Source: an uncultured Bdellovibrionales bacterium (lineage in GTDB: Bacteria > Patescibacteriota > Minisyncoccia > Moranbacterales > GWC2-37-73). Taken from it: a DNA stretch of 64,000 bases. Made by a program: the position numbers and the translations under genes. The DNA lies in the NCBI GenBank assembly GCA_964500125.1, contig CAZCMV010000002.1, positions 4,173-68,172 on the forward strand, given 5' to 3'. Within the stretch, counting starts at the first letter, position 1. Each line of letters begins with the position of its first letter. Under the pieces are notes generated by a model. It did no database searches and had not been told where the DNA came from. It saw only the letters and a program-made list of their open reading frames with translations. Of this stretch, positions 10,120 to 56,000 are shown piece after piece.

Positions 10120-11469
10120 ATGAAAAAGATGGTTGCAATTCTTCTGTTCATCTTTCTGTCACTTACCAACATATGTACTACGGCAATCGCTGTTTGTCCG
10201 CAAAATTCTGGTCCATATACTCTGCCATTTACTTACAATGGCGTAACGTACCAGCATGCATTTACTACAGCATGGGTTTACGGACGCACTTTTTTGCTCT
10301 TCTACAATGATGGTCCGGTATATATGTGGGGAGCCACAGCCTACAAAACTACGAATCCCGTACAATATATGTATATTGATTCAGTTGATGACATATTCGG
10401 TAATGGAAATGATATCATATACGACAACTCATACGACACCATCGTATTTGCCCTTGGCAATTCTTACTGCCAAAGTTCCTGCAAGGAAAATTCCGATATC
10501 AACATTCTCAACGACGGAACATACTTCCAACGTAGCGATTATCATTGCAACTTTCTTTATAACGGAACAACGTCTCAGGTGATTGTGCCTGCTTCGAACT
10601 TCTTCAGTCCAACATATCAACTTACTGTCAACCTCAATCCTTCTGCGGGTGGGACAGTTACCAGCAGCTCGGGAAGTTTGACGTGTACCAATGGTGTTTG
10701 CACGGGGAGCTTTTCGGGAGATGTGCAACTGACGGCTTCGGCGGCGGATGGCTGGGAATTTGTGTATTGGATAGACGGAGGAAACAATGATACGACAAAT
10801 CCCAAGACGGTAAGCATGACTGCCGCAAAGGAGATGAAAGCCGTATTCAAGCTATTATCATTTCCTCTTACCAGCTACAACGCGTATAACGCGCCAGTGA
10901 GTTCCGTGTTTGACCATAGCGGAACGGCGCAATATGAAGACACTGATCACCAAGTGAAAACCTTTAAGGGTGAAACTAGCGAGATCCAGACTCCGTATTC
11001 TGGTACCACCTGCTATCCCAAGTCTGATAATTCAGCTTTTGGGTTGGGATTCAACTATGATGGAATCTCTGGTGCAGGAGTTTATTATCTCTGTTACAAC
11101 GGTCATCCGGGATATGATTACAAGGTAGCGAACAATACCCCAGTATACGCTGCTACTGATGGCGTAGCCCACTTACCCTCAAGTTTTCCCGGAGTTCAAA
11201 ACGCTCAAAATTACAATACTGTTGAAATAGAGCGCCAGGATGGTTACAAAACATATTACCTGCACCTCAGCAGTCAAAACGTAACCGAAAACCAGCCAGT
11301 TTACAGAGGACAAACAGCGATCGGTCACTCTGGCGATACAGGATCGCCTGGGTCGTACCATCTTCATTTTGAAGTTCAAAAAGATGGCATCCCAGTAGAT
11401 CCTTACGGATGGGAGGGATCCGGAAATGATCCCTACACAAGAGATACCAACTACAACTTGTGGAGATAG
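10120..11469 (+). CDS. secreted M23/LytM-family peptidoglycan endopeptidase
   Basis: Signal peptide; C-terminal HPGYDY...YYLHLS...GDTGSPGSYHLHFE (HxxxD and HxH zinc ligands). Confidence 0.75.
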   Translation: MKKMVAILLFIFLSLTNICTTAIAVCPQNSGPYTLPFTYNGVTYQHAFTTAWVYGRTFLLFYNDGPVYMWGATAYKTTNPVQYMYIDSVDDIFGNGNDIIYDNSYDTIVFALGNSYCQSSCKENSDINILNDGTYFQRSDYHCNFLYNGTTSQVIVPASNFFSPTYQLTVNLNPSAGGTVTSSSGSLTCTNGVCTGSFSGDVQLTASAADGWEFVYWIDGGNNDTTNPKTVSMTAAKEMKAVFKLLSFPLTSYNAYNAPVSSVFDHSGTAQYEDTDHQVKTFKGETSEIQTPYSGTTCYPKSDNSAFGLGFNYDGISGAGVYYLCYNGHPGYDYKVANNTPVYAATDGVAHLPSSFPGVQNAQNYNTVEIERQDGYKTYYLHLSSQNVTENQPVYRGQTAIGHSGDTGSPGSYHLHFEVQKDGIPVDPYGWEGSGNDPYTRDTNYNLWR

Positions 11470-12654: not shown

Positions 12655-13464
12655 CTATTTATCAACCTTACTCCAGTCCATCCCCCACGGGTCTGTTTTT
12701 CTCCCCGGTGCGATGTCTTTGTGACCCAAAACATATTTGATTGAATATTTCTTTTTCAGATTCACGATAAGAGAATTGAGAGCTGAGTATTGATCATCAG
12801 TATAATTATCTTTTTCCGTGTTAACCATTTCGATACCAATGGAAAAATTATTTACACCTGTGCGACCGTCCGGCACGCTGCTTTCTCCCGCATGATAGGC
12901 GATATTTTTTTCTGCGACAAGTTGCCAAATGGTGCCGTCGCGACCAATGAGATAGTGCGCCGAAACACCATATTGTTTATATTCTTTCAGTATGCCCTCC
13001 ACATCATAGACATCACCACCTAGCGCGTCATAAGATGAATGCACGATAATCGTATCAATCTTACGATTGTTTGTACTTTTATAACCCCAAGAAATTAAAT
13101 TGACTTTTGTTTTACCCGCACTTTGCGATTTTGTTTTATTTTCATCATCATTATTATTACTTTTTTTTATATCAGTCTTAGCAGTTTTATTATCGGCACC
13201 CTCTTTTGCAATGTCTTTACTTACATTATCTATTTGCTGAATATTTTCTGTATTTTCTTCACTACCATTTATAGCAGTAGCTTCTTGCCCAGAATTTATC
13301 GTGTTGTCACTAGGATTACTACTTTCAGAAAGTGCTAATATGGATACTTTCTTGGAATTATTTTCTCGATATTGCTTCACTTTCCCATACCCAAACCACC
13401 CACCCCCACCAATCAAAGCCAGAATTACTATTATAAATACTATTTTAAAAACTATTCGTGCCAT
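12655..13464 (-). CDS. N-acetylmuramoyl-L-alanine amidase, Amidase_2/PGRP family, membrane-anchored
   Basis: AHYLIGRDGTIWQ...AYHAG...NNFSIGIEMV...GHKDIAPGRKTDP motifs. Confidence 0.75.
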   Translation of the reverse strand: MARIVFKIVFIIVILALIGGGGWFGYGKVKQYRENNSKKVSILALSESSNPSDNTINSGQEATAINGSEENTENIQQIDNVSKDIAKEGADNKTAKTDIKKSNNNDDENKTKSQSAGKTKVNLISWGYKSTNNRKIDTIIVHSSYDALGGDVYDVEGILKEYKQYGVSAHYLIGRDGTIWQLVAEKNIAYHAGESSVPDGRTGVNNFSIGIEMVNTEKDNYTDDQYSALNSLIVNLKKKYSIKYVLGHKDIAPGRKTDPWGMDWSKVDK

Positions 13465-16477: not shown

Positions 16478-16480
16478 GTG

Positions 16481-16553
16481 AGCGGGTAGGGGGAATCGAA
16501 CCCCCATCTTCAGCTTGGAAGGCTGACATAAGAAACCATTATACGATACCCGC
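16481..16553 (-). tRNA. tRNA-Gly (anticodon TCC)
   Basis: Reverse complement: GCGGGTA acceptor stem, anticodon arm TCAGC-CTTCCAA-GCTGA, T-arm GGGGGTTCGATTCCCCC; hand-folded. Confidence 0.8.
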
Positions 16554-16664: not shown

Positions 16665-17615
16665 ATGAATAAAAGAAAAAAGACCATTATACTTTCTACT
16701 TTCCTGTTTATATTTATCTTTTTCAGTTGTTTTGTGGCGGGGCAAATTCAAACATCAATCAACAAGAATATTTTTGGTGATTCTGACCAGGATGGTTTGA
16801 GCGATGAAGAAGAAAAATCTTACGGAACTAATCCAAATAATCCAGATTCTGATGGTGATAGCTATTCTGATGGGGTAGAAATAAAAAGCGGATATGATCC
16901 CCTGAAAGCAGCTCCCGGAGATCGAATTTTGGATTCAAATACAACAGAGAATTTATCCGCCTTCGATGAAGCGAGTTTGACCGAAAGCTTTTCAACAACA
17001 GTAAGTCAATTTTTTTCCTCAAAAGAAAACTCTCAAGAAGCAATCTCAGCAGATGAAATAAATGACCTTGTATCATCAAATCTAAGCGATAAAATAGGTC
17101 CTGCTATAACTTTTGAAAATCTTCCTAAAATAGACCGCGATACTTTGAATATAAAAAGTCAAAATTACAAAAATCTCTCCGAACAAGAAAGGCTGGAACA
17201 AATAAAAAAAGACAATGACAAATATGTTAGAGATATACTCTACCTACTTTTTAGCAATCTTCCAAAAACAATAACTTCGACTGCGGATTTTGATTCTTTC
17301 AAAAATACTTTTTCTGATAAATTAGGAGAACTTTCTAGCGATTCTCCTGATTATGATTATTTTCGTACTTTGGCATCAAGTTTGGATATAGCTTGCAAGC
17401 AAGCTGAAAGCATAGAAGTTCCTGAGTCCCTTGTTGATTTGCACATAAAACTCCTTCAGCTAGTAAATGGATACCTGGCACTAAGAGATCCTTCACTTCC
17501 AAAAATAGAAGATTCTATAACTAGAATAATTGTGATATCACGAGCCAGAATGCTTATAGAATTAACATACACTTTTCTTCAGGAGGCCAATGGAACATTA
17601 AGTCTAACGGAATAA
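16665..17615 (+). CDS. secreted hypothetical protein with thrombospondin-type-3-like Ca-binding repeats
   Basis: Signal peptide; DSDQDGLSDEEE and NPNNPDSDGDSYSDGVE motifs. Confidence 0.5.
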   Translation: MNKRKKTIILSTFLFIFIFFSCFVAGQIQTSINKNIFGDSDQDGLSDEEEKSYGTNPNNPDSDGDSYSDGVEIKSGYDPLKAAPGDRILDSNTTENLSAFDEASLTESFSTTVSQFFSSKENSQEAISADEINDLVSSNLSDKIGPAITFENLPKIDRDTLNIKSQNYKNLSEQERLEQIKKDNDKYVRDILYLLFSNLPKTITSTADFDSFKNTFSDKLGELSSDSPDYDYFRTLASSLDIACKQAESIEVPESLVDLHIKLLQLVNGYLALRDPSLPKIEDSITRIIVISRARMLIELTYTFLQEANGTLSLTE

Positions 17616-17623
17616 AAAATAAA

Positions 17624-18523
17624 ATGGAAACAAAAAACAAATTTACAACATTTTTTTTGATAATTCTTTTCATTATTTTTGCCTCATCAATAACAGTTAC
17701 TAAAACAGCAAGAGCTCAGTGGATAGTTCATGATCCTTTTGATATGCCAAACGATATCATGACAACAATTGAGTCAATTTTCACAACTATAGAGACAACG
17801 ATTACAGCCGTAGCAACTGATGGAATGTGGATGAATGAGGTTACTGACAGATACCTGGTGCCCATATTAAAAGTTGCTGCCATCGAAATGATGAATCAAA
17901 TAATCTCTAACATTGTTAGCAGCGGAAACGATGGTAAGCCTATGTTTGTAACAGATTGGAATGACTATCTTTACACGGCAACTGAGAAAGATGCTAAAGT
18001 ATATATGAACTCCTTTTTTAATAGTGTTAGTGCGGGTAGACTTTCCAATTTGAATTATGAAGGAGTTGGACAATCTTATGACAATTATCTTAAAAAACAA
18101 GCCGAGACAACACTATATGGTAACAAAAAAAATTCTACCACCAACATAAACAACTATGTCGATGACCCACGTCAAGATCTCTTTTCCAAGGGAAATTTTA
18201 AGGCTTTTTCTGCTTTTCTCTCCTGCTATAATAATCCCTATTGCTACTCACTTTCTGCTACAGTTGCCCACGAAAAAGAACTTGACCGCTTAAAAACTGT
18301 TGCCATAAAAGAAGCAAACACAAATGGTTATCTACCAAAAAAGGTAGACGGGAAAATAGTCACTCCGGGATCGCAATATCAGAGTGCAATGGAAGGAATT
18401 GATCAAATGGCAAATAACTGGTTTATGAACGCTACAACTTCCCCTGAGCTTATTACGGCACTTGCCGGCACAGTGGTTACAAAGGTAACTAAAAGCCTAA
18501 TCAATGGAATAGCTACCAATTAA
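17624..18523 (+). CDS. secreted hypothetical protein; N-terminus loosely TrbJ/VirB5-like (IVHDPFDMPND)
   Basis: Signal peptide then VxDPxxxxN helix-rich region reminiscent of TrbJ/VirB5 N-termini; weak. Confidence 0.4.
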   Translation: METKNKFTTFFLIILFIIFASSITVTKTARAQWIVHDPFDMPNDIMTTIESIFTTIETTITAVATDGMWMNEVTDRYLVPILKVAAIEMMNQIISNIVSSGNDGKPMFVTDWNDYLYTATEKDAKVYMNSFFNSVSAGRLSNLNYEGVGQSYDNYLKKQAETTLYGNKKNSTTNINNYVDDPRQDLFSKGNFKAFSAFLSCYNNPYCYSLSATVAHEKELDRLKTVAIKEANTNGYLPKKVDGKIVTPGSQYQSAMEGIDQMANNWFMNATTSPELITALAGTVVTKVTKSLINGIATN

Positions 18524-18646
18524 AAAAACATAAAAGATAAGAGGCATAGTCATCGCCAATAGAAAACCTTTATTCAAAAGAAGCTAAGGTCACAGATTTT
18601 TTGCAATGCTGCTGTGTCATCCTTGCTAGAAATATCAAAAACTTTG

Positions 18647-18720
18647 TGGGTATATCCCGACTCGAACGGGAGACCTCTACAATGTCAATGTAGCGCTCTA
18701 ACCAACTGAGCTATACACCC
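18647..18720 (-). tRNA. tRNA-Val (anticodon GAC)
   Basis: Reverse complement GGGTGTATAGCTCAGTTGGTTAGAGCG-CTACA-TTGACAT-TGTAG...GGTCTCCCGTTCGAGTCGGGATATACCCA; hand-folded. Confidence 0.8.
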
Positions 18721-44769: not shown

Positions 44770-45952
44770 TCCTATAATTATTTCTATCTGTCTCACTATT
44801 GTCAGCTTGCCTCTATATCTTGTTAAGTTTTCTTTTTTTAGTCTACCTCTAAATCTTCTTTTGCTAATTTCCTTGTTTTCCTTGCTAGTAATAATTTCAC
44901 ACACTTCTCTCAAAAATGCTTTTTTATTTTTAAAAAACAACCGACTTATTATTTTTTTCACTTTGCTAATAATTTTCGGCTGCCTTTTGTCAATTTGGCA
45001 CAACGGCTTTTCACCAAGATCATTTTCTATTTTTATTCAATGGATTTTATTACCTGCCATCTTTGGTTTTTTTGCGGCCATAAATTTGCAAAATAAAGAA
45101 TCTCAACTGGACACTATTTTACTTTCTTTGTTCGTTTCAACTACTTTTGTTTCAGCAATAGCTTTATCCTACGCCATCCTAGGAATTTTTACTTACGATA
45201 GCCGCCTAAAAGCCTTCTATGAATCACCCAATCACTTGGCGATGTACATCATGCCAGGAGTTTTTCTCGGCACTTATTTTTTCATCAAAGCAAAGAAAGA
45301 AGATTTACTTGATAAGTCCTTGCTATATTCAATTTTAACTGTTTTTATAATTATTACTTTAACATTAACAAAATCAGCAGGTGCGATGATTGCAGTCCTT
45401 TTTTCTTTACCTTTGGCCTTCTTTTTTATCCGGAGTGGTCTTTTTCGCTACACTGCCAGATTAATACTTCTGTTTGGTTTTACTTTTTTGCTGTCACTTA
45501 GTTTGTTTAGTGCTACCCAAATCACTTATTTGTCGCATGTACCGGAAAGATCATCCTTGGCTTCCCGCTTCATGATTTGGCAATCAGCAACAAAAATATT
45601 GCTTGATAATCCGCTTTATGGCATAGGTCCAGGAAACTTTCAAGCAAAATATCTGGCCTATCAAAAATATTTCCCACCTTATTTGGAATGGGCCGTGCCA
45701 GAGCCGCATAATTTATATTTGGCATTTTGGCTACAGACTGGTTTGCTTGGATTTATTGGTTTTATTCTTTTAGTCTTACTTGTCTTGAAATCACTTGCAT
45801 TTAAAACCAAACAAAAAAATGCCTTGCTTGCTTGGACGCTTTTGGGCATTTTTGTTGCTCTTCTTATGCACGGATTGATTGATACGCCTTATTGGAAAAA
45901 TGATCTGGCTTTTGTTTTTTGGATATTATGCGAAATTGCTTTCCTAATCTAA
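44753..45952 (+). CDS. second O-antigen ligase-like membrane protein
   Basis: Polytopic; TKSAGAMIAVLFSLPLAF loop and conserved His near C-terminus. Confidence 0.5.
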   Translation: MKKKYDPIIISICLTIVSLPLYLVKFSFFSLPLNLLLLISLFSLLVIISHTSLKNAFLFLKNNRLIIFFTLLIIFGCLLSIWHNGFSPRSFSIFIQWILLPAIFGFFAAINLQNKESQLDTILLSLFVSTTFVSAIALSYAILGIFTYDSRLKAFYESPNHLAMYIMPGVFLGTYFFIKAKKEDLLDKSLLYSILTVFIIITLTLTKSAGAMIAVLFSLPLAFFFIRSGLFRYTARLILLFGFTFLLSLSLFSATQITYLSHVPERSSLASRFMIWQSATKILLDNPLYGIGPGNFQAKYLAYQKYFPPYLEWAVPEPHNLYLAFWLQTGLLGFIGFILLVLLVLKSLAFKTKQKNALLAWTLLGIFVALLMHGLIDTPYWKNDLAFVFWILCEIAFLI

Positions 45953-46692
45953 CTTCCTGTATCATATACTTGCTGCTTTATTTCATTTAAACATTTCACT
46001 GAATTGGTTATTATTATAAAATCATCCACTATTTCATAAGAAATACTGCTAACTTGATCATCAGGCATCCTTACCTTGGCATATCTTTGATATTTACCAT
46101 CAAACATCAGTTCTTGCTGTAAATGCTCCGGAGAAAAACTAATTTCCGGAAAAATAACTGATTTAACATCTTGCAACATGGTTTTCTCCCAATTCTTCAT
46201 GAAGCTAACTTCATCCATATAAAGATCTCCTTCATAACCTTCCATCAACTTAATCTTTAACAGGATTCCCATGCCTTTAAAAGTTTCCTGGGAACTGAAG
46301 GAGCACACGAAATTGCTATAATCATTCGTTTCAAGCAAACTGTATAAATTGTCTTCTATATTTAAATTAATCGCCTTGGCAAATTCATCGAGTTTTGCAG
46401 AAGTTCCGGCAGAATCTAACCACACTGTCTCTTTGCTGATTGGCGAAGAAACAAATTTAGAAAATGAATCCCTGATTTCATTTTCTTTGCTCCCCTTTTC
46501 AGATTTTTCAATATCTGAAATTTCGTTATTCACGGGTCTTTCCACTATTGGCATTTCAGATAATTGCTGTTGATCATTTTTTGGTTCAACAAAAACATTA
46601 TTTTTTTTATCAAAATAAACTGCAATGGCAATTACCACTATTGATATAATACTTAACACTGAAATTGCAATTAAAACTATTTTTTTATTCAT
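45949..46692 (-). CDS. hypothetical N-terminally anchored protein (247 aa), last gene of envelope operon
   Basis: Single N-terminal TM; no domain recognised. Confidence 0.4.
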   Translation of the reverse strand: MNKKIVLIAISVLSIISIVVIAIAVYFDKKNNVFVEPKNDQQQLSEMPIVERPVNNEISDIEKSEKGSKENEIRDSFSKFVSSPISKETVWLDSAGTSAKLDEFAKAINLNIEDNLYSLLETNDYSNFVCSFSSQETFKGMGILLKIKLMEGYEGDLYMDEVSFMKNWEKTMLQDVKSVIFPEISFSPEHLQQELMFDGKYQRYAKVRMPDDQVSSISYEIVDDFIIITNSVKCLNEIKQQVYDTGS

Positions 46693-46701
46693 ATTGTTTT
46701 T

Positions 46702-47586
46702 TTATTTACAATAATCAGACGCTCTTATAACACCTTTGCAGTTGGCCATATCTTTGGAAGTAACATTACCATTAACTAAACCAGTTTTTGTTCCTGCAGC
46801 ATGAATCTTAACCGTACATCCCTCATTTTTACAAATAAACACATGTCCTCCGGAAAAAGACGATGGGCTTCTTATGACAACCGCATCTCCTGTATGTAAA
46901 GAGCTTTGGGGAACACATCCTTTGGTACGACTAGCCATTTGCCCCGTAGAACCACCGGGGGATTTGCATCCGGCGTTTTTATAGGCATTTTCAACAAAAT
47001 TTGAACAATCAGTATAGGGAGGATTTCCCTTACAGCCATTTCTCGAACAACCATACTTGGGATTACAATAACGACAACCGCTATTTTTTAATTTTTCCGC
47101 AGCATCTAATACCTGACCTTTTGCAACGCTATTATCATTACCATCCGAAAATTTCACAGGTCCTTCTGCAGCATTTGGCATTGATGCCGTATTTACTTCT
47201 ACTGAAATCAAATTAAGATTCAATTTTACCAAATCCGGATTGATAACATAAAGCAAAATATATGCTGTAAGCACTGCAACCAATCCAATAATAGCATCGG
47301 TTATGATATTTTTAGCAGTGGTTATGGAAGCATTGTTTCCTGCACTAGTTACATAAAGAAAACCTCCCACAGTAAGCATGAAAAAAGCTGCAATACCTAC
47401 GGTCCAAATAAAGAATTTGTAAATAGCAGAAAGAAGGTCAGGAAAAGAAGGTGATGAACCAGCATTAAAGAATCCCGGAAATTGTTCGAGAAGTTTGTAT
47501 TCAAATGCTGCTTGAGCATGCTGAGACAAGAGAAAGCAAAAAGATATACTCAGGCAGAAGCAAAGAAAAAATTTCTTGCTTTTCAT
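46702..47586 (-). CDS. bitopic membrane protein: conserved two-helix N-module (pilin-like) fused to C-terminal CHAP-type amidase/peptidase domain
   Basis: N-module identical to paralog 49242..50168; C-terminus DCSNFVENAY...GDAVVI...GGHVFIC (Cys and His of CHAP). Confidence 0.55.
   Translation of the reverse strand: MKSKKFFLCFCLSISFCFLLSQHAQAAFEYKLLEQFPGFFNAGSSPSFPDLLSAIYKFFIWTVGIAAFFMLTVGGFLYVTSAGNNASITTAKNIITDAIIGLVAVLTAYILLYVINPDLVKLNLNLISVEVNTASMPNAAEGPVKFSDGNDNSVAKGQVLDAAEKLKNSGCRYCNPKYGCSRNGCKGNPPYTDCSNFVENAYKNAGCKSPGGSTGQMASRTKGCVPQSSLHTGDAVVIRSPSSFSGGHVFICKNEGCTVKIHAAGTKTGLVNGNVTSKDMANCKGVIRASDYCK
47204..47571. repeat. 368-bp direct repeat copy 1 (one mismatch to 49754..50121)
   Basis: Identity verified by eye over the whole length; encodes the shared N-terminal module. 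Confidence 0.9.
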
Positions 47587-47597
47587 ATGTTTATTTT

Positions 47598-48746
47598 CTA
47601 TAGTTTTATTTTATAAATCTTGGAATCTATTTTGTTTATAAAAAACAATGCATCTTCGTTATTGGAAAGAAAAATCTTGGAAGCATCATATTTCTCAGAC
47701 AATTCATTGAGTTCAACAATTCTTTCCTTTTTTCCTGTTTCAATGTTTATCTTCCAAAAAGTATCAACTGTATTAAATTTTTCTGCAAGATAATCGTTAG
47801 GAATCACAACATTCTCAGGAATCCCACCCGGCAAAGCATAATATACGGTTTTATTGTCCGACGACCAAACACACTTAGATGCAAATGTAGGAATTCCCAA
47901 GTTTTTATATTCGCCATTCTTGTCAATTATGCCCAGAACAATTTTCTTGCTGTTTTCTTCTTCAAGACTGCTGATAATAGCGTGTTGTCCATTTGGCGAC
48001 CATAAATAATCGGCTCCAAATTTTCCTCCGAATATTTTTTTCAAATCGGTTCCGCCTATGCCTACCACAAAAAGTTGCGTTTCTTCAGATGCCCAGGGGG
48101 AATTCCAAAAAGAAATATTTGAAGATTGCGGCACAGCCGAAACACTCACATGCTTAAATGGAATATCAACAATTTTTTTCCAATTGCTGCCGTCCGGATC
48201 GGCCACATTCAGCGTTCTTTCTTTTTTTTGCGAATCGAAATATTTATATATTATTTTCGCTCCGATTCCATCCCATTTCACTGTATCAAGGTTTTCTTTT
48301 AACTTAGTACCCTTACCGTTAGCATAGTTATACGTATAAAATTCCGTCTTGCCTTTTTTATCAAACGTAGATATCACTTGAACGCCATCAGGTGACCAAG
48401 TAACACTTTGAAGTCCAACTAACTCTTCGTCTGCAACGCTTTTTTTTCCGGAAGCATCCGTATTAACGTCCCAAACCCTTCCATCAACAGCATAGTACCT
48501 AATCATTTCAGAATCTTTAACATAAGCAGCACTAACAACGCCCTCATCGGAAACAGCTGCAACAATTCCTTTTTTGTCAGTTCCGATATCTGAAAACATA
48601 TCGCCTTCTTTTTTTATAGAAACGTTTGTGTCTTCAATATTAGCATTTTTAGCATTTTTATTACTAAAAGCAAAATTATACACACCCCAAAAAAACAGGG
48701 TGATTCCTAATACGATCAGAGTTATAATAAATATTTTTTTGATCAT
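47598..48746 (-). CDS. TolB-like beta-propeller protein (PD40/WD40-like repeats), N-terminal anchor
   Basis: Repeated ...SPDG/SPNG... blades (TWSPDGVQV, YLWSPNGQH, VWSSDNKTVYY). Confidence 0.5.
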   Translation of the reverse strand: MIKKIFIITLIVLGITLFFWGVYNFAFSNKNAKNANIEDTNVSIKKEGDMFSDIGTDKKGIVAAVSDEGVVSAAYVKDSEMIRYYAVDGRVWDVNTDASGKKSVADEELVGLQSVTWSPDGVQVISTFDKKGKTEFYTYNYANGKGTKLKENLDTVKWDGIGAKIIYKYFDSQKKERTLNVADPDGSNWKKIVDIPFKHVSVSAVPQSSNISFWNSPWASEETQLFVVGIGGTDLKKIFGGKFGADYLWSPNGQHAIISSLEEENSKKIVLGIIDKNGEYKNLGIPTFASKCVWSSDNKTVYYALPGGIPENVVIPNDYLAEKFNTVDTFWKINIETGKKERIVELNELSEKYDASKIFLSNNEDALFFINKIDSKIYKIKL

Positions 48747-48773
48747 TTTTATAAAGAATTTATTCTGTCATTA

Positions 48774-49235
48774 TCAAAAAAAAGATTTTCCGTTCGGACA
48801 AAAACTAAGTCCATAATTTTCCCCCGCCAATTCATTGTTTACATTGTATGGAAAAGTCAAATATACATCCAACTTGCATGCTTCCTCTTCATTTATTTTG
48901 AGTGTTTGCAAAAAGTCTTTTTCCGCCTCATCACGAGCATCGTTTTCATTTTCTTTGGCTAATATAAGAATAACAAAATTATTATCTTCCTCAAAATAGG
49001 TAGTGTTAAAATTTTGTTTTTCTCTGAAAGTAATGGTTCCTGAAAATTTTTCTGCAGAATCAGAATATATTGCACTACTATCAAAATTATTCTGCACGTT
49101 TTCTGATATATTCGAAGGATTTGTGCTGTTTGTTTTTTCAAAACCTTTGTCTTGTTTCGGTAACATGAAAAAAACAACTCCTGCGCTAATCAATATCAGA
49201 ATAATTACAATTATTATTATTCTTTTTTTTCTCAT
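48774..49235 (-). CDS. hypothetical small anchored protein (153 aa)
   Basis: N-terminal TM; Asn/Glu-rich. Confidence 0.35.
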   Translation of the reverse strand: MRKKRIIIIVIILILISAGVVFFMLPKQDKGFEKTNSTNPSNISENVQNNFDSSAIYSDSAEKFSGTITFREKQNFNTTYFEEDNNFVILILAKENENDARDEAEKDFLQTLKINEEEACKLDVYLTFPYNVNNELAGENYGLSFCPNGKSFF

Positions 49236-49241
49236 ATTTTT

Positions 49242-50168
49242 TTAAAAATGGCATGACTTATTAGTGCTCCATTGATTCCAACCCAATCTTAGAATCTTAC
49301 AAGATATTTGTATATTGAAACTAGCATCTTTTAATTTTCTTTTGCATTCTTCATATTGTGCTTCTTTGCCGCTTTTCACTTCACAATCATATCCTTTGTT
49401 CCCTATCCTTTTTCCTTGCATGCCACCGCCGTATGTATTAAAAAGCTTGTCACATCCAGGAATCCTATATCCGTTTGCAATTAAATTAACTTGAAAAAGA
49501 CCCACGGAAAATGCTTGTTTTTTTCCATTATGTATACAAACATCGGATGTGCTTTCCAGGGCAGGCACTCCTTCACTTTCCAAGTGGCATATGGATGAGG
49601 CCTTTTTTGCTGCTGCTCCAAAACAAGTATTACTCAGTGTTTCTACGGAACAAGGTGTTTTTGTTTCAGGAGTGCATTTTTTGTCTGAACGACCTCCTCC
49701 AGTGACGCTTCTAGTTTCACTTTGTTCCGTCCTTAATTCATTTAAATTCAAAGAAATCAAATTAAGATTCAATTTTACCAAATCCGGATTGATAACATAA
49801 AGCAAAATATATGCTGTAAGCACTGCAACCAATCCAATAATAGCATCGGTTATGATATTTTTAGCAGTGGTTATGGAAGCATTGTTTCCTGCACTAGTTA
49901 CATAAAGAAAACCTCCCACAGTAAGCATGAAAAAAGCTGCAATACCTACGGTCCAAATAAAGAATTTGTAAATAGCAGAAAGAAGGTCAGGAAAAGAAGG
50001 TGATGAACCAGCATTAAAGAATCCCGGAAATTGTTCGAGAAGTTTGTATTCAAATGCTGCTTGAGCATGCTGAGACAAGAGAAAGCAAAAAGATATACTC
50101 AGACAGAAGCAAAGAAAAAAATATCTGACCAGTTTTCTTGGTTTTCTTTTTTTTGTTTTTATATTCAT
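49242..50168 (-). CDS. bitopic membrane protein: same N-module fused to lytic-transglycosylase (SLT/lysozyme-like) domain
   Basis: CHLESEG...AFSVGLFQVN resembles SLT catalytic Glu-Ser and GLMQ motifs; Cys-rich. Confidence 0.5.
   Translation of the reverse strand: MNIKTKKRKPRKLVRYFFLCFCLSISFCFLLSQHAQAAFEYKLLEQFPGFFNAGSSPSFPDLLSAIYKFFIWTVGIAAFFMLTVGGFLYVTSAGNNASITTAKNIITDAIIGLVAVLTAYILLYVINPDLVKLNLNLISLNLNELRTEQSETRSVTGGGRSDKKCTPETKTPCSVETLSNTCFGAAAKKASSICHLESEGVPALESTSDVCIHNGKKQAFSVGLFQVNLIANGYRIPGCDKLFNTYGGGMQGKRIGNKGYDCEVKSGKEAQYEECKRKLKDASFNIQISCKILRLGWNQWSTNKSCHF
49754..50121. repeat. 368-bp direct repeat copy 2
   Basis: See copy 1. Confidence 0.9.
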
Positions 50169-50209
50169 CTATTATTTACGTCTTCTTAAACTTGACTCCG
50201 TTTCTATTC

Positions 50210-52990
50210 TCAAACAGTTTTATTTTTACCCAATCCCGGTGTGACATAGAAAATAGCTCCCATAACAACAATCATCAAGACAGCAGTTAATGCAAGTCTC
50301 AACAAAAACATCATCTCTCCTGGAAGATTGCTTACCAGACTTGCCATTAATCCTCCTTTTGCCTTGGCTAATTCATCATAACTTTGAACAACTTCCACCT
50401 CCGCCGAGGAGTCCAAATACCTTTCCGTTGCATCTTGTGCGGAAACTCCCCAAATATTATAAAGGGCTTTTCTCACATTCAAAACCTGCTCTTCATCTGT
50501 CGCCATAGCATAAACAGCTTCTATTGAAACATCGTAAGTAGAGCCCTCCCCATTTTCTGCAAGAAACTCAAGGTTTTCACTGTTTGCATATTGATCACCA
50601 TCAACTTCCCAAAAATAAGTCGCATAGCTGCTTATCCATGATGGCGTGAAAGCAGCCTTCATAAACACGCTGTTTCCTTGAATCGTTTCAAAAAGAATAC
50701 TACTATTATCAGCGGTTTCATTTCCCTCCATATCTTTGTATATTCCCAGTTGTTTGGGCCACACTAAATCCTTATTCGCAGATTCTATATTCACAGATGG
50801 TTGCACTATCTTAAATTTTCTATTCACTGTTTGAGCCATTTTTGTTTTCGTGTCTTTGAATGTAACTTCGGCTTCAAATATTTCTCCGTCTGTTCCAACT
50901 GCTGGAAAAAATATAATGTTACTACCCGTTTCTTTGCATTCAGAAGAATGTTCACTATTGCAAAAAACATTTTCTTTGTTTATTTTCCAAGAAAAATTCA
51001 CTAATTGACCATCCTTATTAGGAATAGCTAAACCTATTATGGAATTTTCTATTATAGGACATTCTGCAAGTTCCTCTCCCTCTGTACAAATCTCACTATC
51101 CTTTTTTAAACTAATCTTACCATCATCATCCGCTTTTACCAGATAAGCATCTATATCAGTGCTAGATTTAGTTAATTGTACAATAGCTGATCCCCTACCT
51201 ATCCTATTTTGTTCCGAAGAATTTTCAGATACCTTGGCTTTTATTCTTATATATTGTACCAGTCTATTGGAACCATAAAAAATGTCATCTGGAAATTCAG
51301 CCTTAAATTCAAACTCATTAATACCAAAACCTTTCATTGTTGAATGTTTTTCTAATTTATTTGTGACATCAATCCATTTATCATCCAAGGGCGCTTTTGT
51401 TCCATCATTACTTGCCTCAACGGTCCACTCATAATAAAGAGAAGAAACATCATCTGTTCCACTGACGGTCGTTTGTGCTTTTATATTATCACCCGTGCCG
51501 GTGCGCGTAGAATCATTATTTGCTCTACTTGGATTAGCTAAAACATTTACTTCTAAATTTCCAACACCACCTCCGGTCGGATCCAAAAGATTTTCTTCAA
51601 GACAATCATTTAAATCAAAATCAACCGTGAGGAATCCTGTGTCAATTTGAGGAACTTTTTGATATTCAACATAAAAAGCTCTCTTCTTTTTTATTTCATC
51701 ACTAAATTTCTTACAAACATTATTTGAGAAAGCCCAAGTTCTCATATAGGCATTGTCATCATGCTTGGTAGCAACAGCACTAATACCCTCAACAGCAAGC
51801 CCTACCTGATCCCCAGACCTATAAGTCCAAGAAAATGACTTCGCTCCCAAACCAAGCACATTAGCCTCGTCCGGAATACCGTTTTCGGCAGTAGACTTAT
51901 TATTTGGATCAGTTCCCCAAAATTTCTCCTCAGCCATTTCAAAATCCCCGTCTCCAGTTTTTATATTTGAACCACGAAGATCCTTAGGAGCAACTTGGGT
52001 TGGAAACAAATGCTTACAAAGATTATTAGATTTCTTGAAAGTACAGGTTGGCGATCCTGTTGATATAACAGAACACATCCCTCCAGCACTCAGATCCTCT
52101 TTTAAAATATTGCATATAAACTCCTTATTTGCAGAATCGTTGACAATATATTCAAAAATAGTCCTATTTGATTGTCCGCAAACCGGATTTTTTTGTTGTG
52201 TCGAAGCTAAACCACTGATTTGAGGACACTTAACTCTAGCTTGAAAATTTTCAACATCCTCATCACTTTCCACTTTGCACTCATAATCGTCAGTCTCTGC
52301 ACATATATTGCGAGTACCGGATTCACAAGTTATCAACTCATTTTTACCACAAGCCACAGATCCTCCTGATTCACAAGAATAAACAGGGATCGTTTTTCTT
52401 AACTCATAAAATCTTCCTTTTTCAAAATCTTGAATATAACAATCCTCTATATCCACATCATTTTGAGATTTATATGGCATTTCCCAATCACCAGGATCAG
52501 GACTAACCTCATACCCATCACTATTGGAATCACTAGAGCTATTATAATCAGTATCATTCTCCTTATCAAAGTCTCCTTTAGCAATTATTTTAGCAGCCTC
52601 TATCTTCCAATCATTAACTGTAATCTTGCCATCATTATCCCTATCACATGAACCACCTGAAGATCCTAATTCACAGCCCTCTCTTTTTAAATACCAAGTA
52701 TAATAAAGTTCATCAGAATCTTCTTTAAATCCCTGTGGTAAGGCTTGTGCCACTATCTTATCTCCGGTTCTGGCTGTTAGATTATCAAATGTCACCTTAA
52801 CTTCCACGCCTTGTTTTTTCATAGAAGCTGAGTATGCCTCTTTTAAATCAGAGGGGCGTAATAATTGTATCCTTCCCCCAACTACTGGATCAGCTGCCAA
52901 AGAAAAAAGTGGAGATAAAATTAAAACAATAACTTGAAAAGTTAAATAAAAAATAAATATTATTTTTTTTGTTTTAAAAAAAGAATTCAT
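50210..52990 (-). CDS. 926-aa Cys-rich secreted surface protein with EF-hand/dockerin-like Ca sites and C-terminal TM anchor
   Basis: Signal peptide; DRDNDGKITVND; GTDPNNKSTAENGIPDE; more than 40 Cys; C-terminal LALTAVLMIVVMGAIFYVTPG helix. Confidence 0.55.
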   Translation of the reverse strand: MNSFFKTKKIIFIFYLTFQVIVLILSPLFSLAADPVVGGRIQLLRPSDLKEAYSASMKKQGVEVKVTFDNLTARTGDKIVAQALPQGFKEDSDELYYTWYLKREGCELGSSGGSCDRDNDGKITVNDWKIEAAKIIAKGDFDKENDTDYNSSSDSNSDGYEVSPDPGDWEMPYKSQNDVDIEDCYIQDFEKGRFYELRKTIPVYSCESGGSVACGKNELITCESGTRNICAETDDYECKVESDEDVENFQARVKCPQISGLASTQQKNPVCGQSNRTIFEYIVNDSANKEFICNILKEDLSAGGMCSVISTGSPTCTFKKSNNLCKHLFPTQVAPKDLRGSNIKTGDGDFEMAEEKFWGTDPNNKSTAENGIPDEANVLGLGAKSFSWTYRSGDQVGLAVEGISAVATKHDDNAYMRTWAFSNNVCKKFSDEIKKKRAFYVEYQKVPQIDTGFLTVDFDLNDCLEENLLDPTGGGVGNLEVNVLANPSRANNDSTRTGTGDNIKAQTTVSGTDDVSSLYYEWTVEASNDGTKAPLDDKWIDVTNKLEKHSTMKGFGINEFEFKAEFPDDIFYGSNRLVQYIRIKAKVSENSSEQNRIGRGSAIVQLTKSSTDIDAYLVKADDDGKISLKKDSEICTEGEELAECPIIENSIIGLAIPNKDGQLVNFSWKINKENVFCNSEHSSECKETGSNIIFFPAVGTDGEIFEAEVTFKDTKTKMAQTVNRKFKIVQPSVNIESANKDLVWPKQLGIYKDMEGNETADNSSILFETIQGNSVFMKAAFTPSWISSYATYFWEVDGDQYANSENLEFLAENGEGSTYDVSIEAVYAMATDEEQVLNVRKALYNIWGVSAQDATERYLDSSAEVEVVQSYDELAKAKGGLMASLVSNLPGEMMFLLRLALTAVLMIVVMGAIFYVTPGLGKNKTV

Positions 52991-53015
52991 ATAATTTAAT
53001 TAAAAAATATTATCC

Positions 53016-53678
53016 TCACTTAATCGCTATAACACTTGCATCAACTATGATCAAAAAAATAATATGCGCAATAGTAGAATAAACCAAAGACTTGCTCTTA
53101 AATACAATAATTCCTGAAAATAAGGAAAATATTAAATAAGGTACAAAATACCAATCAAGAGAATTTGTAAGTACAAGAAGTAGAAAAAAAACAATTGTTT
53201 GCGCTAATATTGCAAAATAACCTATTTGTTTTTTCAAGGAAAGCATCAGAAATCCCCTGAAAAAAAATTCATAAAATACTACAAAAGGAAGTACTAGTGA
53301 AAATTCATAAAATAAAAATTTAAAAAAGTTTGCCTGAATTTCTCCTTCCAAAATATACTGCAATGAAAATTCTGTATAATAAAAAACCACATAAAAAAAC
53401 AACAGTGCTATAAGCAAGGAAATGAAACCGTATAAAAAACCTTTTCTCCATTCACCTAAACAAATACCTATCTCTCTAAGAGGTTTTTTTGTAACAATTA
53501 AATTGAAAAAAAATGGGACCAATAAGAAGAAAGATATGGTTACTGCAATATTTTGAAAATTATTTTTTGTGGGAAAAATCGAATAAATAACGACAATAAA
53601 TATTGCAAATAAACTGTTGAAAATAACTTCTTTTTTCATATTTTGTTTTATAAATATTGCAAATAGATTATAACACAT
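53016..53678 (-). CDS. CPBP/Abi-family intramembrane metalloprotease-like protein (start uncertain; possibly MKKEVIF near 53639)
   Basis: Polytopic; YEFFFRGFL (EExxxR-like) and STIAHIIFL (HxxxN/D-like) motifs. Confidence 0.5.
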   Translation of the reverse strand: MCYNLFAIFIKQNMKKEVIFNSLFAIFIVVIYSIFPTKNNFQNIAVTISFFLLVPFFFNLIVTKKPLREIGICLGEWRKGFLYGFISLLIALLFFYVVFYYTEFSLQYILEGEIQANFFKFLFYEFSLVLPFVVFYEFFFRGFLMLSLKKQIGYFAILAQTIVFFLLLVLTNSLDWYFVPYLIFSLFSGIIVFKSKSLVYSTIAHIIFLIIVDASVIAIK

Positions 53679-53969
53679 GAATGATTTAAAAACAAAACAT
53701 ATTATTTCAATATCTGGTCAATCTTTTTTAATAAGTTTTTTTTGATCTCTTCTAATTATATATTCTATATATAATATAATTAAAAATATTATTACTATTA
53801 TTAGGAGATTGGATAAGTGGATAAATATAAATAAAGGCTTCTTTAATAATAAATTATTCTAAAATATTATTGAATAAAGATCTTTTTTGTAGTGTTTAGA
53901 CTTGTTCATAACTTTTTTATGACAAAAATAAAAATTTTTAACCAAACTAATATACAAGATCTCAAAAGG

Positions 53970-54082
53970 TTATCAACAAATAAAAAGAGTTTATTTATAG
54001 ATTATCCACAATTTATACACAAGCAATTTTTATTTTTTGCTTAAGGAGAAGCATAAAAGGATAAATCCACAAGTTATCCACA
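53970..54082 (+). promoter_or_regulatory. cluster of five or six co-oriented DnaA-box-like 9-mers (TTATCAACA, TTATCCACA, TTATACACA, AAATCCACA-AG-TTATCCACA)
   Basis: Two exact consensus boxes plus three one-mismatch boxes within 113 bp, overlapping lspA 3' end and upstream of the envelope operon. Confidence 0.5.
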
Positions 54083-55264: not shown

Positions 55265-55951
55265 AAATCAGCTATTTAGATACAAAAAAACACCCTATCC
55301 GGGCACTTCTCTTATTAAAATCATTTCCGTGGTATGGTTACCCGGCGCTGCAAGCGCCCAAAATATGTAATATGTGGCGGCAGCGCCGGATGTTTGTCAT
55401 GTACCAACATGTTAATCTGAAACTTTTAGCCCGGGTGAAGTGGCATCGAGTTTACCCATAACATGTATTTTGTGTACATGTTTATTTTTTTGACTGCTTG
55501 TCCCTGAGTTTTATTTTTCACAAGAGTCTTTCTTCTACCGTTCTCTGGTCTTTTGACCTTTGTTTTTAGAAAGAACTTTTCTTTTTCTTTTTTATTTTTG
55601 TTTTTTGAAAAAGATTTTTTTATTTTTGTTTTTAGGGTCCTCCGCTCAGGATTTTTGAAATACGAAGGCGGTTTTGAAATGTTATTCAAAACACTTGAAT
55701 AGTAGAAGAGTTCCAACCACAAATAGGGGGAAATTGTGATTGGAATTCTTCCACCATCTCGCAACGGTATATGTTTTTAAGAAACTTATGTATCCATTAT
55801 AGCAGAAAAAATGTGGGGAGTCAATTTTATGAAACTAAAAATTTATATTTTGGCTTCAATAATGTGTATTTATGAATATCTTCAGTATGGATATCGAAAG
55901 CGTGTATTTTTATAGTTAGAAAAAATAAATTACTTTCTGTTTTGCCCATAG

Positions 55952-55971
55952 TTTTCCACAAGTTATCCACA
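55952..55971 (+). promoter_or_regulatory. tandem DnaA-box-like pair TTTTCCACA-AG-TTATCCACA
   Basis: Same 20-bp architecture as 9922..9941 and 54062..54082. Confidence 0.4.
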
Positions 55972-56000
55972 TACGAGTTGCAATCTATCAAAAAATTGCT

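Follow-up and report, generated by a model that had tools for sequence, protein, structure and literature searches.

The minus strand of the 64-kb window (the whole stretch of DNA analysed here, 64,000 nt) carries seven consecutive genes, G1 to G7 in transcription order (Table 1). A first-pass annotation had described them as a co-directional envelope operon. All seven open reading frames are real and intact, with exactly the coordinates it gave. They are tightly packed as it said, although the gaps are 25, 41, 6, 27, 11 and 9 nt rather than 9-40 nt. There is no convincing terminator on the minus strand within G1-G7, again as described; the sole match, at 48702-48683, falls within G5 and its T-tail is poor. 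The spacing suggests that the genes are co-transcribed.

The leader upstream of G1 had been singled out for its DnaA boxes, and rightly. The cluster at 53816-54082, which lies in the spacer between lspA and G1 and in the terminal (3') part of lspA, is the densest in the window, with five boxes of at most one mismatch, two of them perfect. The region may serve as a leader, a DnaA-regulated promoter or oriC. Rfam finds nothing in the leader and spacer. Two promoter-like elements do lie there, and the ATG at 53678, from which G1 had been read, overlaps the extended -10 element TGTTATAAT. G1 probably begins at 53639 instead, as a protein of 207 aa. The genes around the cluster belong to the envelope: Wzy_C occurs twice, and there are a flippase, lspA and two glycosyltransferases, the latter assigned by synteny with two related loci, L001 and L002. 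The window encodes other wall hydrolases as well, of the M23 and Amidase_2 types.

Table 1. Coordinates of the seven genes, their domains and the surrounding features in the window
Feature	Position	Strand	Remarks
TSP3-repeat protein gene	16665-17615	+	Pfam TSP3_bac
Secreted protein gene	17624-18523	+	299 aa
G7	45949-46692	-	247 aa; one N-terminal TM helix, no recognisable domain
G6	46702-47586	-	294 aa; signal peptide, pilin hairpin, linker, NlpC/P60 cysteine peptidase domain
G6 VirB2-like pilin hairpin	47218-47508	-	residues 27-123
G6 Cys194 / His248 / His262	47005-47007 / 46843-46845 / 46801-46803	-
Direct repeat, copy 2	47204-47571	-	368 nt; G6 pilin-module coding DNA
G5	47598-48746	-	N-terminally membrane-anchored PD40/TolB-like beta-propeller
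G4	48774-49235	-	153 aa; one N-terminal TM helix, extracytoplasmic domain, no recognised fold
G3	49242-50168	-	308 aa; pilin hairpin and lysozyme/SLT-fold domain
G3 signal peptide			predicted cleavage between AQA and A, after residue 37
G3 VirB2-like pilin hairpin	49767-50057	-	residues 38-134
G3 lysozyme/SLT-fold domain	49245-49676	-	residues 165-308; after disordered linker
G3 predicted catalytic Glu197	49578-49580	-
Direct repeat, copy 1	49753-50120	-	368 nt; G3 pilin-module coding DNA
G2	50210-52990	-	926-aa surface protein; AF2 model, family conservation
G1	53016-53639	-	polytopic CPBP/Rce1-like membrane protein; Pfam PF02517
AT-rich spacer	53640-54082	-	upstream of G1, into lspA 3' end
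Extended -10, promoter-like	53675-53667	-	TGTTATAAT; upstream of G1
TTGATA-16-TATATT, promoter-like	53976-53949	-	upstream of G1
DnaA boxes of the cluster	53816, 53970, 54002, 54013, 54074

The gene products that carry no pilin module

G1 had been called a CPBP protease. The family match holds (Rce1-like/CPBP, PF02517, 36.2 bits against a cut-off of 22.4, with 19 of 40 family members matching), but the catalytic motifs are largely lost. CPBP proteases have the motifs EExxxR, FxxxH and HxxxN/D, and the histidines are the catalytic residues. G1 keeps only Y-E124-x-x-x-R128. Q147 and D200 are conserved instead, E112 and S184 complete the list of residues conserved in the family, and the aligned C-terminal half of the family (residues 100-207), where the Pfam match falls, has no conserved His. 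A PDB sequence search with the family found no match. Nothing beyond fold-level homology stands behind the immunity or maturation role that had been suggested for it. G1 adjoins G2 in 61 of 76 loci, and we regard this CPBP-like protein and its ~900-aa Ig-like-repeat neighbour as a near-obligate pair.

G2 consists of a signal peptide, a Cys-rich N-terminal half, Ig-like domains, and a C-terminal TM anchor with a charged tail. The anchor is conserved in the family, as are about 18 of the 20 Cys. The AF2 model (pLDDT 83.5) has tandem Ig-like beta-sandwich domains at about residues 480-870, for which Foldseek returned generic Ig-like arrays only; G2 has no Pfam match and its family no PDB sequence match. 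Its description as Ca-binding is weak, with no more than a conserved DxDxDG loop in the Cys-rich half and sub-threshold EF-hand matches behind it. The last helix of G2 had also been likened to the N-terminal module of G3 and G6. We reject this homology: an HMM of the module has no match there at E<=10. The motif also lacks conservation across the G2 family, which occurs in 77 Moranbacteria loci.

G4 has sub-threshold Pfam matches to SpoIIIAH/FliL and orthologues at the same position in five loci. G7 is the least conserved of the seven, with an orthologue in L001 only. PDB sequence searches with G4 and G7 found no match. The TolB-like label of G5 is weak but real: its family profile matches TolB (7mx5) with an E of 2.5e-5, TIGR02800 gives it 33 bits where 343 would be needed, and in G5 itself PD40 stays under its threshold. 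Among 34 relatives, 7 match PD40 and 6 match DUF5050 (13 together). These matches point to a PD40/TolB-type propeller, not a TolB orthologue. Of 57 loci, 30 have G5 downstream of G2.

Pilin modules joined to wall hydrolases

G3 and G6 both begin with a signal peptide followed by a two-helix hydrophobic hairpin. The first-pass annotation saw their N-terminal modules as identical membrane anchors. The identity is exact over the 99-aa module and reaches 124 of 129 residues when the signal peptide is included. The anchor, judging by its profile matches, is a VirB2-like T4SS pilin domain: PF18895 (T4SS_pilin) scores 31.3 bits in G3 and 32.3 bits in G6, above the cut-off of 26.6. A linker of about 30-35 aa separates the hairpin from the enzyme. 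Hairpin and linker are followed by some 145 aa of catalytic domain, so that neither protein has the size of a stand-alone pilin, and there is no stand-alone pilin in the G1-G7 cluster.

The enzymes need some correction. The G6 domain (residues 150-294) had been assigned to CHAP, but PF05257 does not match it at E<=1; it is NlpC/P60 instead (PF00877, 27 bits against a cut-off of 23). Aligned to Spr (2k1g), its Cys, His and His are correctly placed, and D193-C194-S195 and H248 are invariant across 28 G6 orthologues. For G3 the term SLT-like is right as to the lysozyme fold and the invariant ES and GLFQ motifs, but G3 itself does not reach the Pfam threshold (SLT_3, 14.8 bits against 27). Several homologues carry PF18896 or PF01464, and a PDB sequence search with the G3 family found no match. 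The catalytic residues of both enzymes, the Glu of G3 and the Cys-His-His of G6, are conserved in the alignments.

The identity extends to the DNA, where 368 nt are shared at 99.7% identity (blastn). Three independent Logan assemblies break inside this repeat, and the Logan contigs matching G2 are short and end inside it. We reject the idea that the repeat is an assembly artefact because its copies lie in different genes, the same pattern occurs in three genomes, and independent assemblies branch there. Pilin modules are 86-100% identical within a genome and 46-82% identical between genomes. The module is under concerted evolution, homogenised between paralogues, while keeping about 20 invariant residues. 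Homologues of it are fused to at least seven classes of C-terminal domain. Five are identifiable as wall hydrolases (lysozyme-like, SLT, NlpC/P60, C39-like and VanY), a sixth is M15-like by sequence motif only, and the seventh has no recognisable domain. In L002 the orthologous G6 slot holds an unrelated C-terminal domain. One relative also matches TrbC/VirB2 (PF04956).

The cluster and the Moranbacterial T4SS locus

We mapped homologues of G2 in 76 Moranbacteria loci, 61 of which have enough upstream sequence to be read. The usual order is VirB6-like, U391 (unknown), PrgI (VirB3-like), D228 (TrsD-like), VirB4, usually T181 (small TM), and then G1-G2, often followed by one or more pilin-module genes, G5, or both. 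In 48 of the 61, G1-G2 come straight after the virB6-like/prgI/virB4 block and share its strand, and Pfam confirms the VirB4 and PrgI identities there. Among these 48, G5 lies downstream in 20 and pilin-module genes in 15, all on one strand. In about half of the loci G1-G2 have neither downstream, and therefore the seven genes are not one invariant unit. A CHAP domain is present in another Moranbacterial T4SS-locus protein (c12), and in many Moranbacteria a gene for a LysM-CHAP protein lies upstream of VirB6-like.

Since homologues of G1-G2, often with pilin-module genes or G5, stand beside the genes from VirB6-like to VirB4, the cluster is the distal part of a T4SS locus already known from Patescibacteria. 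The earlier suggestion that it is T4SS-related gains from this contiguity and from the pilin domain. The further suggestion of a stripped-down apparatus gains no such support if a self-contained one is meant; the cluster is the distal half of a known locus, separated from its ATPase block in this sub-clade. It had been noted that VirB4, VirD4 and VirB11 are missing from the window, and Pfam scans of the larger open reading frames found none. Nor does any open reading frame of at least 40 aa in the window match the Moranbacterial HMMs for VirB4, VirB6-like, PrgI and the families beside them. In 11 related loci of the same arrangement there is likewise no VirB4, VirB6-like, PrgI or TrsD-like gene within 10 kb.

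The window does keep a trace of the other side of the core. Homologues of the gene pair at 16665-18523, which has a weak DUF4141 Pfam match, directly precede the VirB6-like gene in the canonical T4SS loci of Moranbacteria (HMM E of 4e-36; phmmer matches in 13-14 loci, always at that position). Together with G1-G7 this places both flanks of the missing core within the window, about 28 kb apart.

We think it likely that the cluster is the extracytoplasmic, wall-facing module of a Moranbacterial (Patescibacteria/CPR) T4SS. Two VirB2-like modules would carry hydrolases on flexible linkers, G3 cutting glycans and G6 peptide stems, while G2 would be a membrane-anchored stalk or adhesin paired with the CPBP-fold G1. 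Sec export and signal-peptide cleavage would leave the hairpin in the membrane with both ends outside, thereby holding the enzyme in the wall zone. The shared module may target both enzymes to the T4SS assembly site or admit them into the pilus. Local cutting of glycan and peptide bonds would open a passage for a pilus or channel, with G2 and G5 providing surface contact or scaffolding. A rearrangement in the sub-clade would have split this module from the ATPase/translocon block, which is presumably elsewhere in the genome. The proposal that the enzymes may breach the wall of a host is plausible. It would fit the data equally well if, like VirB1, they acted on the wall of the bacterium itself.

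A bolder version deserves some credence, though we would not bet on it. The fusions may be true pilus subunits, their hairpins pulled out of the membrane and polymerised by the T4SS, giving a conjugative-type filament or tip studded with both cutters that drills the host wall and so establishes epibiotic contact. Swapping of the warhead would then adapt it to the peptidoglycan chemistry of the host, and identity of the pilin modules would allow the paralogues to co-assemble. In another variant the sub-clade would have lost VirB4 and would use the outer module with no T4SS motor behind it. Against uptake of the fusions into a pilus, here or in the main reading, stands the bulk of 170 aa per subunit, which a helical filament of the VirB2 type may not accommodate.

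One can argue that the T4SS core was lost, that the hairpin is a mere anchor for two autolysins remodelling the cell's own wall in growth and division, and that G2 and G5 are general surface or scaffold proteins. That neither the window nor the surroundings of 11 related loci contain the core is in keeping with this, as are the envelope-gene neighbours (Wzy_C twice, flippase, lspA and the glycosyltransferases), and core flanks 28 kb apart are compatible with core loss. We nevertheless consider such a housekeeping operon unlikely. About 20 invariant residues and active homogenisation exceed what an anchor needs, most Moranbacteria have these genes right beside virB4, and the window already encodes M23 and Amidase_2 hydrolases. 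Excerpts of a 2025 survey (Quinonero-Coronel et al., PMC12102498) also put virB4 in most Patescibacteria, with 2,474 virB4 genes in 3,035 genomes.

The swapping of C-terminal domains behind one conserved module, in at least seven interchangeable classes and with the unrelated domain in the G6 slot of L002, could recall polymorphic antibacterial effectors, in which the pilin module would be a delivery domain, the hydrolases toxins against a competitor or host, and G1 the immunity protein. CPBP/Abi proteins are known to act as bacteriocin immunity factors, and G1 is of that type. There is precedent for bacteria-killing T4SSs that deliver peptidoglycan hydrolases (review PMC6536674). Yet G1 tracks G2 and not the hydrolases, it is present in loci without a downstream pilin fusion, and it does not vary with hydrolase type. 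No small cognate immunity gene follows each enzyme, and a polytopic membrane protein would be an unusual immunity against a glycosidase or peptidase acting in the periplasm. This seems to us very unlikely. Hardly credible at all is the reading of the seven genes as decaying transfer genes left over from an integrated conjugative element. Pilin-like and VirB1-like domains with no ATPase in the window speak for it, along with a weak NCBIfam match in the cluster to a Mycoplasma ICE pilin-like protein. We reject a mobile-element remnant because the chromosomal synteny next to yidC/rnpA/dnaA is kept across dozens of species. The open reading frames are also intact with conserved catalytic residues, no integrase or relaxase was seen, and there is no jump in GC content.

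Comparison with known secretion systems

The pairing of G1 and G2 may be likened, by analogy only, to a myxosortase and its C-terminal sorting signal. In both cases a CPBP-fold polytopic protein sits beside a large surface protein that ends in a TM anchor and a charged tail (PMC11980579), but the tail of G2 lacks the invariant-Cys signature and G1 lacks a conserved His in its C-terminal half. G5 shares PD40-type propeller blades with TolB, the best PDB sequence match of its family. It has an N-terminal TM anchor where TolB has an N-terminal domain, and its host is a monoderm in which the Tol-Pal partners are absent.

The TraG/PrgK comparison drawn earlier holds loosely. Excerpts of PMC12102498 describe TraG (pIP501) and PrgK (pCF10) as T4SS-dedicated proteins that join a lysozyme/SLT fold to a papain-clan cysteine peptidase and are tethered in the membrane through a hydrophobic N-terminal segment. 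Glycosidase and cysteine peptidase occur here too, but on two proteins instead of one polypeptide, with NlpC/P60 in place of CHAP, and the tether is a conserved pilin hairpin rather than a single TM helix. Compared with EtgA (EPEC T3SS) and VirB1, the G3 domain is rich in disulphide-forming Cys, fused to a pilin, and without an above-threshold Pfam SLT match. Like VirB2/TrbC/TraA pilins, the module proteins have a signal peptide and then a hydrophobic hairpin whose two helices are joined by a short polar loop; unlike them they add a catalytic domain of 150-230 aa and belong to a monoderm.

The closest relatives are the Patescibacterial T4SSs (MPF-FATA-related). As given in part in PMC12102498 and PMC10633639, they also have VirB2-like PF18895 pilins in a monoderm and lysozyme-like, cysteine-peptidase and M15-type wall hydrolases in the locus, and they are chromosomal, close to the origin and without a relaxase. 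The excerpts of PMC12102498 place them near dnaA/rnpA/rpmH, the same location as here. In most Moranbacteria VirB4, PrgI and VirB6-like genes are contiguous with G1-G2 homologues, whereas here the VirB4 block is neither adjacent to G1-G7 nor in the window. The excerpts of these two papers make no mention of counterparts of G1, G2 and G5, and those of the survey report that no adhesins were detected. We found no literature on pilin-hydrolase fusions in CPR, nor a description of concerted evolution of pilin modules, a CPBP and Ig-repeat pair, or a membrane-anchored TolB-like propeller.

Pilins in monoderm CPR are a puzzle, and a natural pilin-hydrolase fusion is a kind of Rosetta stone tying them to peptidoglycan cleavage. 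G3 residues 165-308 and G6 residues 150-294 are clonable candidate enzymes, and G1, G2 and G5 are candidate partners for understanding how ultrasmall bacteria cross cell walls. Module homogenisation and warhead swapping point to a possible host-range determinant that could be read directly from metagenomes. The T4SS locus of Southlakia epibionticum (SEML1_0006-0019), the one CPR bacterium in which the system has been tested for its role in epibiotic growth and proved essential, has stand-alone PF18895 pilins and separate lysozyme/Cys-peptidase and M15B proteins, according to excerpts of PMC10633639. The functional parts are the same but unfused, whereas here pilin and hydrolase form one polypeptide.

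The cluster and the T4SS locus of its relatives

The seven genes G1 to G7, numbered in transcription order, are the distal part of a Patescibacterial T4SS locus that has been split from its ATPase block in this lineage. We conclude this because T4SS core genes precede the same genes in most relatives and because both flanks of that core are present in the window without it. The window comes from the chromosome of a small-genome Patescibacterium and also carries rpoB/rpoC, ftsH, polA, dnaN, a flippase gene, two Wzy_C genes, lspA, a dksA-type zinc-finger gene, pnp and gyrA, as well as two ORFs that we take as glycosyltransferases by synteny with the related loci L001 and L002. Its relatives carry the names Candidatus Moranbacteria or Moraniibacteriota.

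The first-pass annotation described a seven-gene minus-strand envelope operon; its observations largely stand, and its interpretation stands in part. The ORF call returns exactly the same coordinates, with gaps of 25, 41, 6, 27, 11 and 9 nt in order, and a terminator scan agrees with it in finding no convincing minus-strand terminator between the genes. G1 probably starts at its second ATG, at 53639, and is then 207 aa long; this is where the gene is called in independent assemblies and in the L002 orthologue. An extended -10 element, TGTTATAAT, overlaps the first ATG.

Features of the window (G1 to G7 as returned by the ORF call)
Feature	Position	Strand	Detail
G1	53016-53678	minus	220 aa
G2	50210-52990	minus	926 aa
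G3	49242-50168	minus	308 aa
G4	48774-49235	minus	153 aa
G5	47598-48746	minus	382 aa
G6	46702-47586	minus	294 aa
G7	45949-46692	minus	247 aa
dnaA	36892-38346
Densest DnaA-box cluster of the window	53640-54082		spacer and lspA 3' end; five boxes with <=1 mismatch, two perfect
Further DnaA-box site	55952-55971
Conserved intergenic stretch	55265-56000	minus	736 nt, between the UPF0102 gene and the 391-aa gene; two DnaA boxes
Candidate structured RNA (core)	~55311-55830
Peptidase_M23 with InlB B-repeat-like domain	10120-11469	plus	wall hydrolase
Amidase_2 protein	12655-13464	minus	wall hydrolase
TSP3-repeat protein and secreted 299-aa protein	16665-18523	plus	weak DUF4141 match in the latter
tRNA-Gly	16480-16553
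tRNA-Val	18646-18720

L001 and L002 preserve both the gene order and the surroundings of the whole block: pnp, the 391-aa gene, UPF0102, dksA-zf, lspA, G1 through G6 (G7), and then the convergent Wzy/GT/flippase/jag/yidC/rnpA/rpmH genes. Identity to the window is 29% (L001) and 76% (L002) for G2, and 45% and 73% for G6, the L002 value for G6 covering the shared N-terminal module only. A scan with the G2 family, taking one genome per species, gave 77 Moranbacteria loci, whose ORFs were labelled with HMMs from the cluster and its recurrent neighbours; 61 of them had at least 4 kb of upstream sequence. Same-strand T4SS core genes precede G1-G2 in 48 of these 61, in the order VirB6-like 685-aa polytopic protein (so called from position and size alone), 391-aa protein, PrgI/VirB3-like protein, 228-aa protein and 616-aa VirB4, with a 181-aa TM protein after VirB4 in most. 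Pfam supports the identity of VirB4 (PF19044 at 100.8 bits, with AAA_10, DUF87 and TraC) and of PrgI (34 bits), and a LysM-CHAP protein often lies further upstream of the core. These loci demonstrate the linkage of the cluster genes to the T4SS core across the order. The window's own sub-clade, 11 of the 61 loci, has UPF0102/dksA/lspA in place of the core.

An HMM search of the 64-kb window found no T4SS core families among its ORFs; the earlier statement that VirB4, VirD4 and VirB11 are missing from it is thereby borne out for VirB4. The TSP3-repeat gene and its partner are homologues of the two genes that come before the VirB6-like gene in canonical loci. Since the window has both core flanks and no core, the locus has either been broken into at least three pieces or lost its core by deletion. 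The pair is flanked by two tRNA genes and forms a small island in a minus-strand region.

On the other side, G1 and G2 are a near-obligate pair (61 of 76 loci). Of 57 loci, 24 have pilin-module genes downstream of G2 and 30 have G5 there, and the same Wzy...yidC genes often follow. About half of the 77 loci (L008-L034 and similar) read VirB4...T181-G1-G2, T181 being the 181-aa TM protein, and lack both pilin-module genes and a propeller beyond G2; what comes next in them is a convergent CCA-adding enzyme gene with infB. The pilin genes of these genomes must be elsewhere or absent.

Pilin modules joined to wall hydrolases

G3 and G6 have in common a VirB2-like (PF18895) pilin module, a signal peptide and then two long hydrophobic helices. 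In the AF2 model the helices span 59-94 and 96-126, residues 127-161 form a disordered linker, and the globular domain beyond it is predicted well. About 20 residues of the module are invariant among 24-39 homologues, including the mature N-terminal Y-x3-E-x2-P motif and S-A-G-N in the inter-helix loop. Its DNA forms a 368-nt repeat in the window, 99.7% identical and ending at the linker, and three independent short-read assemblies break within it. These are Logan contigs of the public runs SRR8925823, SRR21295123 and SRR16951081 (L080, L081 and L082); their G2 protein is identical to that of the window, the organism is the same, and each contig stops 137 nt past the G2 stop.

The C-terminal domain of G6 had been read as CHAP; Pfam identifies it instead as NlpC/P60 (27 bits against a cut-off of 23). 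Its Cys194, His248 and His262 align with the E. coli Spr triad, and neither D-C-S nor His248 varies among 28 orthologues. The corresponding domain of G3 matches SLT_3 below the Pfam threshold and found no match in a PDB sequence search; E197-S198 and G-L-F-Q are invariant in it. The window encodes two more wall hydrolases (table), and muralytic enzymes are notably abundant in this tiny genome.

Among its best 120 homologues the module has C-terminal partners of at least seven classes. Five of these can be recognised as wall hydrolases (G3-type lysozyme-like, classical SLT, NlpC/P60, Peptidase_C39-like and VanY), a sixth with an H...D...HxH motif is M15-like by reading of the sequence only, and at least one more has no recognisable domain. 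The G6 slot of L002 (12589-13503) holds the module with an unrelated C-terminal domain that has no Pfam match, a class with 10 members among the best 120 (class-B proteins P0019, P0032, P0043 and P0093). A second class, of 20 members, has no recognisable domain; a weak Hedgehog-N match in one member may hint at a metallopeptidase. Searched exhaustively, the 99-aa module gave 18,240 clusters at E<=1e-3, the best 150 of which comprise about 129 of fusion size (>=250 aa), 11 stand-alone pilins and several with 3-6 tandem modules. P0362, P0364, P0434, P0396, P0400, P0407 and P0408 carry 3-6 modules in one protein of 460-620 aa, and we know of no description of such "poly-pilin" proteins.

Seven genomes with two fusions have within-genome module identities of 100, 100, 98, 96, 95, 93 and 86%, and their best between-genome identities are 46-82%. 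The module pairs in these genomes show concerted evolution. Four other genomes have divergent pairs, orthologously conserved, at 23-27% identity.

The region upstream of G1

The lspA-G1 spacer is about 390 nt long and very AT-rich. Related loci have 3-6 DnaA boxes at the same place as the cluster found here; in the window, two boxes lie upstream of dnaA. The fall in cumulative GC skew ends at about 54 kb, although minus-strand genes continue past that point. Because this is the densest box cluster and the skew flattens here, the region may be oriC or a DnaA-controlled promoter, with a replication origin perhaps at 54-56 kb, about 16 kb from dnaA. It had been described as a long leader carrying a DnaA-box cluster; the cluster is real, but the region may not be a leader. 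A promoter-like extended -10 lies just 27 nt from where G1 probably starts. The Patescibacterial T4SS locus described by Wang et al. 2023 (PMC10633639) and Quinonero-Coronel et al. 2025 (PMC12102498), of which the cluster is the distal part, is likewise origin-proximal.

The window has a strong excess of perfect DnaA boxes (9 perfect; 36 with <=1 mismatch against 18 expected), and the boxes sit in intergenic pairs. By nhmmer, 12 Moranbacteria loci conserve the 736-nt intergenic stretch (E 1e-34 to 1e-126), which has a TTGAC-17-TATAAT promoter-like site, then about 470 nt. The consensus fold of these 470 nt has 96% canonical pairs against 39-45% with slid partners, shows compensatory changes in 34 pairs against 6-14 in slid controls, and closes with a terminator-like stem. 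The stretch matches no Rfam family at E<=1 and no tmRNA, and we regard it as a candidate structured RNA without an assigned family.

Accessory proteins and a possible mechanism

G1 matches Rce1-like/CPBP proteins (36 bits against 22.4), and its family conserves E124-x3-R128, E112, Q147, S184 and D200. The CPBP motifs include histidines as catalytic residues. G1 may not be a canonical protease, since the C-terminal half over which its family was aligned (residues 100-207) has no conserved histidine. G2 has no Pfam or PDB sequence relatives. In its AF2 model (pLDDT 83.5) a signal peptide is followed by an N-terminal half that is rich in Cys and contains a conserved DxDxDG loop; Ig-like beta-sandwiches come next in series, and there is a conserved TM helix at the C-terminal end. 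G5 is a membrane-anchored PD40/TolB-type propeller, and G4 and G7 are single-pass anchored proteins for which Pfam and PDB searches detected no relatives of known function. Signal sequences and hydrophobic segments predict that all non-membrane domains are extracytoplasmic.

We believe the cluster is probably a T4SS-linked wall-breaching module. The pilin hairpin would have both termini outside the membrane, so the enzyme would be held in the wall zone on a linker of about 30-35 aa, and one homogenised module would bring a glycan cutter and a stem-peptide cutter together at one site. This could be where the T4SS assembles (VirB1-like, acting on the cell's own wall), the pilus itself (acting on a host wall), or both. 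G2, with its Ig-repeat stalk, and the G5 propeller are candidates for contact or scaffolding. G1 might chaperone or process the conserved C-terminal anchor of G2, by analogy with CPBP-type myxosortases (PMC11980579), an idea that is speculative because the aligned part of G1 has no conserved histidine.

With the core absent from the window, the cluster could also be a housekeeping autolysin operon left after the core was lost; given the linkage in 48 of 61 loci, we think this unlikely. The changing C-terminal domains behind the pilin module could be read as a polymorphic effector and immunity module, which we consider somewhat less likely again. A remnant of an ICE seems very improbable for a block that keeps its order and its chromosomal neighbourhood in L001 and L002.

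The points of interest are the pilin-hydrolase fusion, its concerted evolution and the accessory set of G1, G2 and G5. The literature covered by our search makes no mention of such a fusion; its concerted evolution, the exchange of the C-terminal domain in the G6 slot and the G1-G2 pair also seem to be undescribed. The essential T4SS locus of S. epibionticum (PMC10633639) has stand-alone PF18895 pilins with separate lysozyme/Cys-peptidase and M15B-like proteins. These are functionally the same parts as in the Moranbacteria fusions, but unfused.
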